Assembly: GCA_964359155.1 (NCBI GenBank)
Contig: CAYHRN010000001.1
Coordinates: 1 to 36,650, forward strand
From: an uncultured Gammaproteobacteria bacterium
Lineage (GTDB): Bacteria > Patescibacteriota > Patescibacteriia > CAYHRN01
Length of the DNA: 36,650 nt
Direction: 5' to 3'
The notes beneath the pieces are model-generated. The model saw only the letters and a program-made list of their open reading frames with translations, searched no databases and was not told the origin of the DNA. Below, in pieces: positions 15,088 through 36,650 of this stretch (within the stretch, counting starts at the first letter, position 1; each line of letters begins with the position of its first letter). The position numbers and the translations under genes were made by a program.

Positions 15088-15522
15088 TTAGTACATGCCG
15101 AGTTCGCCTAATTTTTCTGCCATACCCAGCATGTCTTTTTCAGCGCCTACCCGGAATGCATGCCATTTTTCTTTGTCCCATACTTCCAAGCGATTCAGTA
15201 CGCCCACCATGACGACTTCTTTTTTTAAATCTGCATACCCTTTCAAAGGGTCGGGAATGAGCACGCGCCCCAGAGCATCGGGCATAACTTCTTCTGCGCT
15301 ACTAAACATCAGCCGTACAAAGTTGCGAGTTGTTTCTTGGCCAATGGGGAGTTGTGAAAGTTTTTTGGCGATTTCTTCCCACACAGGGTAGGGGTACACA
15401 AACAAACATTGGTCGGGGCCACGGGTGATTACCACGCGTTCGCCCATTTGCCCACGCAGCTTTGCCGGAATAGCAAGGCGTTTTTTTACATCAATACTGT
15501 ACTGATATTCGCCTGTGAGCAT
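15088..15522 (-). CDS. mraZ: Transcriptional regulator MraZ
   Basis: 144 aa with duplicated SpoVT/AbrB-like halves (DVKKRLAIPAKLR and DALGRVLIPDPLK). First gene of the dcw cluster. Confidence 0.95.
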   Translation of the reverse strand: MLTGEYQYSIDVKKRLAIPAKLRGQMGERVVITRGPDQCLFVYPYPVWEEIAKKLSQLPIGQETTRNFVRLMFSSAEEVMPDALGRVLIPDPLKGYADLKKEVVMVGVLNRLEVWDKEKWHAFRVGAEKDMLGMAEKLGELGMY

Positions 15523-15560
15523 AGATTGAGAATGAGTTATCCCCTTTTAAGCCTGCTTAT

Positions 15561-15642
15561 CCACCACTCTATCCACTTTTCGCCACTTTTGATTCATTCT
15601 ACGCCACTTTTGAATACTCGTCAATAGTTTTCTCCCACTTTT
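15561..15642 (-). promoter_or_regulatory. mraZ promoter (TTGACG-17-TAGAAT) with an overlapping array of AAAAGTGG MraZ-box repeats
   Basis: On the minus strand the -35 box TTGACG is 15619-15624 and the -10 box TAGAAT is 15596-15601, with a 17-nt spacer. CCACTTTT (minus strand AAAAGTGG) starts at 15573, 15583, 15604 and 15635. A GTGGTGG lies at 15561-15568. Box spacings are 10, 21 and 31 nt, i.e. helical phasing. Confidence 0.6.
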
Positions 15643-15745
15643 CTGCCTTCGCCTCTCCCTTTACGGGACCCAGTAGGTCAATGTACTCATTGAGAGGCCC
15701 CGCCAGTAGGCGGGGGTGAGGGTGAATTCGCTCGGGATTCCTGCA

Positions 15746-15786
15746 CGAAAAAACGCGGTCAAATGTCCCTGCGAGACATTTGCCGC
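15746..15786 (-). terminator. Putative intrinsic terminator (minus strand)
   Basis: Minus strand reads GCGG-c-AAATGTC-tcgcagg-GACATTT-ga-CCGC followed by GTTTTTTCG. Confidence 0.5.
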
Positions 15787-15984
15787 TCGTATCTCGGCCG
15801 TTCGCTCGGCAGATACGCCCTGACGACACGCATAATTTTGTGCTCAAAATTTGCTCCGACTCGTGCCGGTCGCACTCCGTAGGGTCGGCCAAGAGGAATA
15901 CCTCACGTCATTTTGGAATTCTCCAGGTTATTGTTTTTCCTCCCCTTAGGATAAGGGGAGGTTAGGAGGGGTTACGAACCTTTC

Positions 15985-16090
15985 AAAAATGAAGAGCCCC
16001 GCTAAGTCGTGTCGACCGCGCGGGGCTGGGGGTTTCGCAATTGAGCGATATGACGTCGGGGGTGGTTGCCGCGGTTGTGCTGCCCGCAGC
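15985..16090 (-). ncRNA. Candidate small RNA of about 100 nt (predicted promoter to hairpin terminator)
   Basis: Minus-strand promoter TTGGAA (16117-16122), 17-nt spacer, TATTAT (16094-16099). GC-rich body with no ATG. Hairpin AGCCCCGC/GCGGGGCT (15995-16002 / 16020-16027) followed by CTTCATTTTT. No family recognised. Confidence 0.3.
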
Positions 16091-16207
16091 GCAATAATAA
16101 TTAAGCCGTTTTTCTATTCCAATGCACAAATCAATAGCCACGCCCGATTGTTTTCTTGCTTACTTTTTACTTTTCTATCGCAATTATTTAAAGGACGACG
16201 AGTTACT

Positions 16208-16636
16208 TTACGATAGGCCGTTCAGGAACGCATCCAGCGCATCGTCGCGTTGTTTGCTCTTCTTCTGCTCGGCCTCGAAGTCCTGGATTTCGAGTAGCGT
16301 ACATGAGAGTGCCGGAAAGGAAATGTGCCGCCACTGCCGTTTTTGTTCTATTGCGAGGACACCCTCTCTTTTGAACGCCACCGAGATGCATTCTTTACAG
16401 ATCCAATTGATCTGCCAACTGCCGTCGGCGTTCCGCACCAGTTTCCCTGCGCGATTATTCACCTGTGTATTTTCTGCCCTACCGCGCTGGCAGAATACGC
16501 ACACTCTGTTCTCCCAACCGGGCGGGATCTCTATGCGCCAGGCGTGTTTTCTTTTGCACGCATGACAGATCCCGCAGGTAGCACACACGGTGCCGTCGAA
16601 GGTGGTGCCTCCACAGATGCACCGCTTGTCGGCCAT
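16208..16636 (-). CDS. Cysteine-rich (multi-CxxC, zinc-ribbon-like) protein, unknown function
   Basis: I take the internal ATG at 16636, preceded by AGGAG; the 5' part of the track ORF overlaps the upstream gene. 142 aa: MADKRCICGG...CATCGICHAC...CVFC...CKEC, with an acidic helical tail. Codon third positions are G/C-rich, unlike neighbouring genes. Confidence 0.6.
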   Translation of the reverse strand: MADKRCICGGTTFDGTVCATCGICHACKRKHAWRIEIPPGWENRVCVFCQRGRAENTQVNNRAGKLVRNADGSWQINWICKECISVAFKREGVLAIEQKRQWRHISFPALSCTLLEIQDFEAEQKKSKQRDDALDAFLNGLS

Positions 16637-16655
16637 GATACGAGCTCCTAAGTTG

Positions 16656-17027
16656 TCAAGTTTTGAAAAAATTGAATTCGTCGCGGCGGTCAATAAGATC
16701 AAAGGCAAGGGGCATGTGAAGGGGCGGGTAAAGGTAAATGATTTTAAATGTGCCACTGGTGGTTTTGGTTATGTAATCGTGCTTAACCTCTAAAATATGC
16801 ACCAGGCCCCAGTACAGCCAGCGGCCATTAATATTTTGTACTAAAAAATTACGCACAGGTGCAGCCTGGTACATGCGTATGTCGGGTTTTTTAAATTCAA
16901 AAACTTTGCCTTCAAACTGTTGGGCAGTGAAAGGTTTATTGTTATGCATCTCATACACCAGCTCGGCAGGAAACCCCTGCTCAAGGGTAAGTTGTAAAGT
17001 GTCGTTGAGTGTCACCGTGCTGCCCAT
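16656..17027 (-). CDS. Hypothetical protein (123 aa), beta-rich, unknown function
   Basis: Complete ORF with an ATG start. Lies 19 nt downstream of vapC and 19 nt upstream of the Cys-rich gene. AT-rich host-like codon usage. No motif I can name. Confidence 0.6.
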   Translation of the reverse strand: MGSTVTLNDTLQLTLEQGFPAELVYEMHNNKPFTAQQFEGKVFEFKKPDIRMYQAAPVRNFLVQNINGRWLYWGLVHILEVKHDYITKTTSGTFKIIYLYPPLHMPLAFDLIDRRDEFNFFKT

Positions 17028-26153: not shown

Positions 26154-26244
26154 GTCATTCCGAGTGAAACGAGTTTAGGTTTTGGTAGCCGCAGGCTTCA
26201 GCCTGCGTTCATCTAAGGTTCGCAAGCTAAAGCTTGCGCCTACC
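26153..26244 (+). repeat. Composite intergenic repeat: a TGTCAT-type unit plus a REP doublet (REPIN-like)
   Basis: tgtcattccgagtgaaacgag occupies 26153-26173. ggtagccgcaggcttcagcctgcg-ttcatctaaggt-tcgcaagctaaagcttgcgcctacc occupies 26184-26244. By hand alignment it matches the 33560-33620 doublet at 54 of 61 positions, with compensatory stem changes. Confidence 0.75.
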
Positions 26245-33640: not shown

Positions 33641-34171
33641 TTAAATTTCATTCCATGTATCGAAGTTATACAGCGTTGATCCTTTAAAAGGATATTGTTG
33701 CCAATTTTGTACAAGGTTTTTGCGTAATGGATTCGCAAGAATATACTTTACTTGTTTTGTAATATCTTCGTCTTTTCTGAGGATGTGATCGTAAAAATCT
33801 TTTTGCCACGCTGCGCCACTCTTGCATTGAGAGAGCCAATAGCCTGTTTTTTGTTTAAAGTTTTTCATGCACGTATAGAGATCGGACGATTCTTGTGTAC
33901 CTGTTAGAAGAATATGAATATGATCTGGCATAAAGAGATACACGTGGGCTTCGCAGGAATATGTTTTCAAGGATTGAAGTAATATAGCCTCGATTGCATT
34001 GAATCGTTCTTGTGCAGTAAAGAACAGCATTCTATTTTTTACACACATAGTAAATGCGGCACACACGGTGCCAGTATAAAGACTCCGATCTAGGCGATGC
34101 GATTTTTCGAGGATTGGTTGCATAGGCATATTGGATTTATTGGTAGTCGCAACCTTTAGGTTGCGTTCCAT
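33641..34171 (-). mobile_element. REP-associated tyrosine transposase (RAYT; IS200/IS605 Y1 HUH family) gene
   Basis: HUH motif in YLFMPDHIHILLTG and the catalytic Tyr context VKYILANPLRKNL. The first roughly 10 codons of the track ORF are a REP hairpin, so the real start is probably the ATG at 34129 or 34123. REP copies lie on both sides. Confidence 0.85.
34142..34165 (+). repeat. REP unit variant (GTAG plus hairpin CGCAACC-TTTA-GGTTGCG)
   Basis: ggtagtcgcaacctttaggttgcg. Relative to ggtaggcgcgggctttagcccgcg, three stem positions differ and all three are compensated on the opposite arm. Confidence 0.55.
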
Positions 34172-34324: not shown

Positions 34325-36364
34325 TTACACAAACAATGGCGCAAGGACAAGGGTGAGCGTTGCAAGAAGTTTAATCAATACATGCAAGCTGGGGCCGGCG
34401 GTGTCTTTGAAAGGGTCGCCCACAGTATCGCCGGTAACCGCTGCTTTATGCGTATCGCTGCCCTTACCACCAAAATTACCTTCTTCAATCCATTTTTTCG
34501 CATTGTCCCATGCGCCACCCGCATTGTTAAAGTAGGTGGCCATAAGAATGCCGGCAATGGTGCCCACCATCAAAAGCCCAGCCTCTGCTTCGGCTCCCAG
34601 CCATATGCCAATAACAATCGGTACCACAATGGCTAATGCCCCAGGGAGCACCATTTCCTTTAAGGCCCCGCGGGTAGTAATATCAATGGCTTTGGAATAA
34701 TCTGGAAGTTCAGTGCCTTTCATAATACCAGGGTGTTCTTTAAATTGGCGGCGTACTTCGTTCACAATATAAAACGCAGCTTTACCTACGGCGCGAATAG
34801 CCAAAGAAGAAAATACAAATACCAAACCCGCACCCACTAGGCCACCCACAAACACTTCTACTTTTGCTAAGTCTACCGTTTCCAGTTTTGCTTCTTCTAA
34901 GTAGGCAGAAAAAAGTAAAAATGCCGCAAGCGCTGCGGAACCAATGGCGTACCCTTTGGTTAACGCTTTGGTGGTATTGCCCGCGGTGTCCAGTTTATCC
35001 ATGACTTTGCGGTACTCTTGTGCCTCGCCACTAAGCTCCACAATACCTGCGCCATTGTCGGTAATGGGGCCAAACGTGTCCATGGCCAAAATATACGCAG
35101 CTGTGGCAAGCATACCCATAGTGGCCATGGCCGTGCCATACAGTCCCCCGCCTTCTACCCCAGAATGAGTTCCCAGCCAATAGCTGGCCAAAAGCGCGCC
35201 GCCAATGGTAAGCACGGTTAAGCCCGTGCTCTCAAGCCCCACCGCAGTACCGGCAATAATATTGGTGCCATGCCCCGTGCGAGAAGCTTGAGTAATGCTG
35301 CTTACCGGCCTAAAGCGCCCTTCGGTGTAGTATTGAGTAATATACACAAATACTAAACTGGTAAGAATACCCACCACGCCGGCAGCAAAAAACCACATAT
35401 TGCCCAGGAGCAAAAATTTCGTGCAGAAATAAAACGCCACTACCGCAAGCGCAAGGGTTACATAGTAACCACGGTTCAGTGCGCTCATGGCAGGTTCATT
35501 CTCTTTCGCGCGTACACTAAAAATACCCACAATCGTGGCAAGTAACCCAAACGCACGAAGCACCAAGGGAAACAAAATGCCACCAACCCCAAATGTGGGG
35601 TAAAGTGCCGCGCCCAAAATCATAGCACCAATGTTTTCGGCTGCGGTGCTTTCAAAAAGATCTGCACCACGGCCTGCACAATCGCCCACATTGTCACCTA
35701 CTAAATCCGCAATCACGGCAGGGTTGCGGGGGTCATCTTCCGGAATACCTGCTTCAATTTTACCTACTAAGTCTGCGCCTACATCGGCTGCTTTGGTGTA
35801 AATGCCACCACCCAATTGCGCAAACAGCGCCACGAGCGACGCACCAAACCCATACCCTACTAACATGCCAGGAATGGCAGTCACTTCATAGCCAAAATAT
35901 TTATATACCAAGTACATTCCTGCAATACCAAGAAGCGATAAACTTACCACAATCAAACCAGTAATGGCACCGCCCTTGAGTGCCACTTGTAAGGCGGCAT
36001 TAAAACCATGTTTAGAAGCTGCCGCACTGCGTACATTGGCAATGGTGCTCATGACCATACCAATAATACCTGCCAAGGCGCTGGAGACGGCCCCCAGTAA
36101 AAGCGCCACCGCAGTTTGCCAGCCCAAGGTGGCGTTCCCGTTTCCTGCGTATACTGCATACATACCTGCGGCCAAAAGTAAGGTAATAAGGCCAATAGTT
36201 TTATATTGGCGTTTTACAAAGGCATTGCTGCCCTGGCGTATGGCTAATGCAACCTTTTGCATTTGCGCAGTGCCTTGTGGCTGGCGCTTGATCCAGTTAA
36301 TTAAAAATCCCACTACAGCGAGTGAGAACACCGAGATGCCAATAGGCAGGTATTCGAGGGTCAT
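34325..36364 (-). CDS. hppA: Membrane-bound proton/sodium-translocating pyrophosphatase
   Basis: About 679 aa from the ATG at 36364 ([13 protein letters not shown]...). Motifs [34 protein letters not shown] and [11 protein letters not shown]. The track's longer N-terminus is translated repeat sequence (IPAYAGMT). Confidence 0.9.
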
Positions 36365-36388
36365 AGGGTATTTATTTATTAAAAAAAA

Positions 36389-36504
36389 TGTCATTCCCGC
36401 GTAGGCGGGAATCCAGGCCCGTATTAACCTGGATTCCGGGGTTGCGCCGGCACATGCGCGTTGGTACGCGCAGTATCTCCTCACCTTCGTTCGTCGAGAT
36501 GACA
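36389..36504. repeat. TGTCAT-family palindromic element of about 116 bp upstream of hppA
   Basis: The left end is tgtcattcccgcgtaggcgggaatccagg. A 10-bp stem ggaatccagg/cctggattcc spans 36408-36437. A tgcgcg/cgcgca hairpin follows. The right end reverse complement, tgtcatctcgacgaacgaaggtgag, resembles the 30512 unit. Confidence 0.6.
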
Positions 36505-36650
36505 AAATAACTCTACCTATTTCCCAGCATTTTTGCAAATTATGTTGGCATTGACGAGATTATTTTAAAGTGTCCTTATATTTTATAGCTGGTGCCCTGA
36601 ATTCACCCCTCAATTAGGACACTCTCTCTTGAATTAATTTCATACTACCC

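Follow-up and report, generated by a model that had tools for sequence, protein, structure and literature searches.

Palindromic repeat families probably account for most of a hairpin-dense block upstream of mraZ in a Patescibacteria genome

Among the described small palindromic repeats, the hairpins of REPINs commonly carry compensatory changes (PMC3116915). PMC10969869 reports that the pneumococcal repeats BOX and SPRITE form clusters in which one repeat is inserted in another, that Rickettsia palindromic elements (RPEs) are inserted in frame in unrelated essential genes and translated, with RPE families said to encode a conserved peptide, and that ERIC copies are mostly intergenic, lie in either orientation in transcription units, are occasionally intragenic and have a patchy copy number, while their cleavage by RNase may affect mRNA fate. 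Here we analyzed a hairpin-dense block (15643-16122) in the spacer upstream of mraZ of an uncultured bacterium of the Patescibacteriota lineage (GenBank assembly GCA_964359155.1, contig CAYHRN010000001.1, positions 1 to 36,650 of the forward strand; this whole stretch of 36,650 nucleotides is called the window). An initial annotation, made from the letters of the window, had read the block as noncoding DNA that gives rise to one or two stable small RNAs, or else as the untranslated remnant of a foreign element. Our results indicate that the block is very probably, for the most part, a pile-up of palindromic repeat elements of three families, named A, B and C, and not a dedicated small-RNA gene. 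The closest analogues of these families are REP/BIME clusters, ERIC and RPEs, and by sequence A, B and C are members of none of them; no description of the three families was found in Rfam or in full-text literature searches.

When the spacer (685 nt, 15523-16207, between mraZ and a cysteine-rich open reading frame (ORF)) was compared by BLAST with its own genome (806 kb, 85 contigs, completeness estimate 95%), 34 matches were obtained in three discrete, sharply bounded blocks, which span about 266 of the 480 nt of the hairpin-dense block (~55%). The five hairpin stems that had been described there were all recovered at their coordinates; three of them (hairpins 1, 3 and 4), previously attributed to one or two small RNAs, instead belong to copies of three genome-dispersed repeat families. 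The repeat elements and the five hairpins were as follows.

15649-15726: family A element, a polypyrimidine/polypurine double hairpin that holds hairpin 1
15669-15693: nested mini-hairpin of 25 nt, CCCAGTAGG + TCAATG-TACT-CATTGA, splitting an arm of the family A copy between GGGA and GAGG
15698-15715: hairpin 1, CCCCGCC/GGCGGGG, second stem of the family A unit
~15785-15925, minus strand: family B copy (covariance-model match 15909-15802), with hairpins 2 and 3 inside
15788-15817: hairpin 2, CGTATCT/AGATACG, a small hairpin in a C25-type flank, common to one other family B copy
15856-15888: hairpin 3, CCGAC/GTCGG, within the family B core
15934-15980: family C palindrome, CCTCCCCTT-AGGAT-AAGGGGAGG + TTAGGAGGGGTTACG, holding hairpin 4
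15939-15961: hairpin 4, CCTCCCCTT/AAGGGGAGG, a 9-bp stem at the centre of the family C palindrome
15995-16027: hairpin 5, AGCCCCGC/GCGGGGCT, terminator-like, within the unique segment E

The whole 685-nt spacer folded better than shuffles on both strands (z = -3.06 and -3.16), and such two-strand symmetry points to DNA palindromes, not to one strand-specific RNA. Because each element is a DNA palindrome, it gives a hairpin on either strand, which explains both the density of perfect GC stems and the equal folding of the two strands. The proposed RNA unit of ~200 nt is composed of family C, a chimeric family B copy and a terminator-like hairpin, and no promoter of its own was found. The view of the block as noncoding and structured held, with its hairpins confirmed and its ORFs Pfam-negative, and the alternative wording of an untranslated remnant of a foreign element came close to the truth, in that the block consists mostly of dispersed repeat elements. 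Very probably, this long intergenic spacer is a tolerated landing zone for at least three small palindromic repeat families (A, B and C), whose copies accumulated beside two hairpin terminators, with further stems added by nesting of one element in another and by recombination between copies (one recombinant). For families A, B and C we established the multi-copy nature, the structures, the distribution and the occurrence in genes, and we infer that they spread by transposition-like copying; they are probably selfish, and the copies in this spacer are probably passengers whose effects, for instance on the stability or termination of transcripts, would be incidental at most.

The canonical unit of family A (~50 nt) reads TCGCCTCTCCC-loop-GGGAGAGG + CCCCGCC-loop-GGCGGGG + GTGAGGGTG, and a sister form reads CCCTCACCCC..CCCTCTCCC-loop-GGGAGAGGG..GGGTGAGGG. 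The host genome contains about 40 copies or more (~25 close copies by BLAST, 39 by a strict hairpin pattern). Open frames of 150 codons or more contain 30 of the 39 strict hairpins and 70% of random positions, so family A does not avoid genes. Indeed, in-frame copies are translated in LeuRS, RecG, a UvrD-like helicase, PolA (DNA polymerase I), a P-type ATPase and IleRS/ValRS, giving peptides such as PSPQPSPARGEG and RLSLEGRGPAVGGGEGE, of the PSP..GEG type, with up to four per gene. Such tolerance may be due to the pure-pyrimidine or pure-purine arms, which by their sequence are stop-free in all frames on both strands. The genes bearing family A, by contig of the host genome (G000), were as follows.

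C35:5436-8144: LeuRS
C31:7978-9609: RecG
C21:9443-12496: UvrD-like helicase
C22:5012-7696: PolA
C36:1571-3895: P-type ATPase
C8:1-2376: IleRS/ValRS
C64:1435-2847: methyltransferase

The family A copy of the window differs from uninterrupted copies (e.g. C32:3530-3574) solely by the 25-nt insert. The same GTAG-plus-hairpin module was found inserted in six other family A copies, with compensatory stem variants, and its CC[CT]AGTAGGT motif occurs 21 times in the host genome. The module looks like a miniature GTAG-type REP within another repeat; a 2-nt GA duplication at its insertion is possible and ambiguous.

Family B is an imperfect palindrome of 110-150 nt with a conserved apical three-way-junction core of ~55 nt (consensus across genomes C...CG.AG-CGCGAC-GGCGCG-AG...GAG-CAAATTTTCAGCAGAAAATTATGCG). 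This core sits atop a 20-38-bp stem whose sequence differs between copies while the pairing is kept, and two GA-rich internal loops recur (e.g. GUGAGG/CCGAAG). Across many Patescibacteria lineages the core is >90% conserved and the arms are unrelated in sequence. Covariation, which the initial annotation had proposed as a check on its RNAs, was strong, but for family B as a multi-copy element: 22 of the 33 pairs changed on both sides, 93.4% of the alignment cells were paired compared with 31-54% when the partners were slid, and the observed values were reached by 0 of 500 shuffles. The complementary strand folded less well in most copies. The window copy is chimeric, with a C7-like 5' arm and a C25-like 3' arm, and for this reason its outer stem cannot form; it scored 90 bits, compared with 102-119 bits for 9 of the 10 other copies used in building the model, and its local fold was unremarkable (z = -1.35). 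Another case of nesting was observed at L066:7707-7870, where a family B copy has an extra hairpin of ~56 nt in the loop of its second helix.

As a comparison set we used the 60 nearest representatives in the genome collection, which have only the class in common with the host genome. The covariance model found 13 family B copies in the host genome and 10 in one of these relatives (G005), and none in the 59 others, so that 2 of the 61 same-class genomes are carriers. In the species-representative genome collection the strict core pattern matched 48 stretches, mostly with Patescibacteria labels (Parcubacteria, Nomurabacteria, Kaiserbacteria, Paceibacterota, Minisyncoccia), and in these loci the covariance model recovered 55 copies. 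The labels place the host genome among the Patescibacteria (CPR) as well. Family B is seemingly an undescribed hairpin family found across Patescibacteria. Five further carrier genomes contained 10, 6, 8, 2 and 3 copies, some of them as adjacent inverted doublets. In one Parcubacteria genome such doublets were seen at G061:C2:88869-89087 and 110398-110624, with mixed orientation on one 455-kb contig. Mobile repeats typically show such a patchy distribution with several copies per genome, and a housekeeping RNA does not. The orientation relative to neighbouring genes was about 50:50. In other Patescibacteria genomes, family B copies also lie within genes, in sense orientation and in frame, at the following positions.

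L057:5753-5857 and L051:3674-3780: dnaE, two genomes, same site
L062:2683-2789 and L068:182-289 (= L014): prmC, two genomes
L035:2989-3097: miaA
L056:2710-2815: tsaD

These copies are read in two different frames, which indicates conservation at the nucleotide level and no conserved peptide.

The full palindrome of family C, ~40-52 nt in length, is TTAACCCCNCC..CCTCCCCTTA-N-TAAGGGGAGG..GGNGGGGTTAA. It occurs at about six loci in the host genome, and copies at 84-98% identity were found in 12 of the 60 other same-class genomes; the window copy is without the left outer half.

Three Y1 (IS200/RAYT-like) transposase genes are present in the host genome, at 33641-34171 of the window, C46:3110-3847 and C21:2-898 (contigs of G000). 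The window gene is flanked by different GTAG-REP hairpins, of the GGTAGGCGCAGGCTTTAGCCTGCGC type, and a doublet of the GGTAGGCGCAGGCTTTAGCCTGCGC-type REP was observed at 26184-26244; the RAYT genes checked have no copy of family A, B or C at their flanks. Mobilisation of family B by IS200/IS605-type enzymes or by a reverse transcriptase was not supported, with TnpB found in neither the host genome nor G005. The single reverse-transcriptase gene (C13:6556-7170 of G000, RVT_1, E = 3.6e-28) adjoins no family B copy. Moreover, the mixed orientations of family B within 60 kb of the 455-kb contig argue against insertion tied to one replication strand. A phage origin of family B was likewise not supported (0 strict-pattern matches in viral contigs), and a CRISPR-like array was rejected for a 34-nt repeat whose copies are dispersed and irregularly spaced. 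In addition, further palindromic repeats are apparently translated in C55:2212-3954, in LeuRS of C35, in PolA of C22 and at the start of the window ORF 34325-36538 (peptides ...IPAKAGIQ...LDPDFHRGD..., ...SGESRNPD...GSRVEHEMT..., ...HPERSEGS...PTAQNDN... and ...IPAYAGMT...), and the host genome therefore holds more repeat families than A, B and C.

Like the REP, BIME and REPIN repeats of Proteobacteria, for which the mobilising enzyme is RAYT, a Y1 tyrosine transposase, the families described here are short, many-copy palindromes that form mosaics in intergenic spacers and have compensatory hairpins; the likeness to REPs extends to the Y1-transposase-like genes of the host genome, one of them flanked by GTAG hairpins, and to the GTAG-plus-hairpin layout of the 25-nt module. 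However, REPs are extragenic whereas family A lies in genes as often as expected by chance, REPINs have conserved ends and a variable middle whereas family B has a conserved centre and variable ends, family B is present in a genome without a detectable Y1 transposase (G005), and A, B and C are without terminal GTAG, although A often has GTAG in its loop. Miniature inverted-repeat transposable elements have conserved terminal inverted repeats and target-site duplications, and family B differs from them in that its outer arms vary between copies and no flanking direct repeats were seen in the alignments. ERIC, imperfect palindromes of ~127 bp whose central part is the best conserved region, are similar to family B in size, in having tens of copies or fewer, in lying in either orientation and in their patchy copy number, but there is no sequence similarity, the phylum is another one, and family B has a branched three-way-junction apex and unrelated yet near-perfectly paired outer arms. 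RPEs are palindromes of ~100-150 bp in a reduced genome, and families A and B are likewise in frame and stop-free in essential genes; unlike RPEs, family B is read in at least two frames with no conserved peptide, the units of family A are shorter (33-50 nt), and the host lineage is Patescibacteria. Pneumococcal repeats, of which RUP is a third family of this kind, also have different small families bunched and nested, and one of these families, like segment F, has the look of a rho-independent terminator. Cyanobacteria have very small nested repeats, reportedly described by Elhai et al. in 2008, of the same size class as the ~25-nt nested element. From both of these our sequences differ in being unrelated, and the nesting in the window block was found for one module.

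The remaining features of the spacer and its flanking genes were as follows.

15088-15522, minus strand: mraZ (Pfam MraZ, E = 1.1e-33)
15624-15596, minus strand: mraZ promoter TTGACG-17-TAGAAT, overlapped by five AAAAGTGG-type direct repeats (region 15561-15644)
15746-15786, minus strand: segment F, a terminator-like hairpin, GCGGCAAATGTC-TCGCAGG-GACATTTGACCGC then GTTTTTTCG, with a T6 tail (z = -3.63)
15985-16090, minus strand: segment E, with a 5' hairpin, a C-rich single-stranded stretch (CCACCCCC, AACCCCCA) and the terminator-like hairpin 16027-15995 followed by CTTCATTTTT
16094-16122, minus strand: promoter-like TTGGAA-17-TATTAT, a consensus match (9/12)
16208-16756, minus strand: orphan cysteine-rich (Zn-ribbon) ORF, no Pfam match

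The flanking genes run on the minus strand, and along it come, in turn, the Zn-ribbon gene, the promoter-like site, segment E with its terminator hairpin, the family C palindrome, the chimeric family B copy, the second terminator hairpin, the family A copy with its nested GTAG mini-hairpin, and the mraZ promoter with the AAAAGTGG boxes. T-runs after two minus-strand hairpins, as had been pointed out, were found at 15748-15753 (T6, after 15755-15786) and 15985-15989 (T5, after 15995-16027). Segment F is single-copy in the host genome. We observed a relative of it at L069:800-880 (G025:C13), 77% identical with compensatory stem changes, between a convergent exonuclease-like gene and folD; this hairpin sits in a terminator-like position, and the segment F type may be a dispersed terminator-like element. 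The AAAAGTGG repeats are probably MraZ operator boxes, and four same-class genomes (G031, G035, G046, G047) had a match to the mraZ promoter stretch (spacer query 34-102), with identities of 76-84%. A pair of AAAAGTAA direct repeats (GAAAAGTAAAAAGTAAGC) was noted ~550 nt upstream of mraZ (16150-16180, minus strand); they are similar to the AAAAGTGG boxes and may represent additional, weak MraZ sites or have arisen by chance. Segment E, which lies immediately past the promoter-like site, folds in a strand-specific manner (z = -4.09 on the minus and -0.78 on the plus strand), and had no other copy in the host genome and no relative in the 60 same-class genomes. It is a candidate orphan RNA of ~100 nt, or it may do no more than terminate the vapBC/Zn-ribbon transcript from upstream.

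That segment E is an independent small RNA of ~100 nt transcribed from the TTGGAA-17-TATTAT site appears to us somewhat unlikely; such an RNA would be compatible with a repeat pile-up in the rest of the block, and the pairing partners of its C-rich stretches would be ribosome-binding sites rich in G or, in mRNAs, the G-rich arms of family A copies. The promoter-like site is at the right distance, the strand-specific fold combines a 5' hairpin, an open C-rich region and a terminator hairpin with a T-run, and the segment lies outside all repeat families. However, homologues were missing from the 60 genomes, the T-run begins 6 nt past the stem, and the hairpin may merely end the vapBC/Zn-ribbon transcript; the promoter itself, although located where the initial annotation had seen a good one, is weak on its own, as the scan gave 3 sites against 2.0 +/- 1.7 expected, about the number expected, with no enrichment over shuffles. 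Far less credible, and in our judgement highly improbable, is a descent of the block from a protein-coding gene, now decayed, or from a larger foreign element (prophage or insertion-sequence fragment) of which it would be what is left. The GC enrichment that had been reported is real yet moderate (54.8% compared with a mean of 46.7%, standard deviation 3.9% in 480-nt windows; 97.6th percentile) and would fit such an origin, as would a 97-aa ORF overlapping the block (15599-15892, minus strand), but the raised GC is accounted for by the GC-rich repeat arms, and this ORF is built of repeat copies, its ...PLNEYIDLLGP... being the A/mini-hairpin module that is also in RecG. The block indeed has no convincing ORF: the 97-aa ORF and two smaller ones cross repeat copies and are without a Pfam match, and since no frame of the block gave such a match the protein-coding or pseudogene reading was rejected. 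Known RNAs fared no better. Across the whole window Rfam 15 returned nothing at its gathering thresholds, be it tmRNA, RNase P, SRP or 6S RNA, a riboswitch or a ribozyme, in agreement with the earlier failure to recognise a described RNA family; in 15400-16350 at E up to 10 only chance-level matches were obtained (E > 2; best scores Chlorobi-1 12.8 bits, threshold 50, and sR23 11 bits, threshold 45), and ARAGORN reported only a distant tRNA-Leu.

Several observations count against a pile-up of selfish repeats as the account of this block. About 170 nt of it (segments E and F) are not repeated in the host genome. We saw neither a target-site duplication nor an excision product. The closest available mraZ loci are just 53-55% identical at the protein level. 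G005, with its 10 family B copies, had no match to a Y1 transposase, TnpB or reverse transcriptase, so that no mobilising enzyme is linked to family B. Further, the two dnaE-resident cores differ at ~2 of 55 nt (~96% identity) while the flanking dnaE is just 65-70% identical, and their arms are unrelated between the two copies and still paired in each; the core is thus better conserved than would be expected of a decaying parasite. Finally, the stem mismatches of family B are 75 G-U to 24 A-C, favouring one strand (minus in the window), an excess that may be inflated by the fitting of the alignment to the model's strand; this points to a constraint on one strand as a single strand, which could mean a host function. 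The points on family B, together with the compensatory changes and paired fraction that no shuffle reached, the conservation of the core across lineages with unrelated arms, and the sense orientation of every in-gene copy, speak for family B as a host-functional structured RNA or single-stranded DNA module, a reading compatible with a mobile origin, in which the three-way junction and GA-rich loops would serve as a protein-binding site, the long stem as a signal for processing or stability (e.g. for RNase III) in the transcript that carries it, and the window copy would be damaged. We nevertheless consider it unlikely: the distribution is patchy (2 of 61 same-class genomes), the copy number varies from 2 to 13, the orientation relative to neighbouring genes is random, the in-gene copies are in frame and stop-free and hence read through rather than removed, and the sense bias is partly forced, as the antisense of the core hairpin has stops in two of three frames. 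Compensatory changes are common in selfish REPINs as well, so covariation alone is no proof of host function. The broader proposal, that family B is a previously undescribed functional module widespread in Patescibacteria and that selection keeps the copies in dnaE, prmC, miaA and tsaD, is doubtful to the same degree. What keeps a functional role of family B a real possibility is how strongly its core is conserved, how its wobble pairs favour one strand and how the copies inside genes have retained their pairing. Two more specific roles were rejected. As a conserved mraZ-upstream element or cell-division operon regulator, family B had 0 copies in 27 metagenomic mraZ loci, and the relatives matched only the MraZ-box stretch; as a hammerhead, twister or kink-turn, its junction had no consensus core by eye or in Rfam, and its GA/GA internal loops are without the 3-nt bulge of a kink-turn.

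The reading of the block as mostly a pile-up of palindromic repeats removes a false lead, in that the hairpin block is neither a new housekeeping RNA nor a cell-division operon regulator. It also indicates that a streamlined Patescibacteria genome of 0.8 Mb tolerates several palindromic repeat families, even inside essential genes, a phenomenon so far documented mainly in Rickettsia. In metagenome-assembled genomes such repeats interfere with gene calling, with the prediction of small RNAs and with protein alignments, and they are possible markers of lineage history. Family B is now defined by a consensus and a covariance model and is unusual in combining an invariant branched apex with a perfectly paired stem of free sequence; should it prove functional, it would add a new structural module, of RNA or DNA, to what is known of a large and little-understood section of the bacterial tree.

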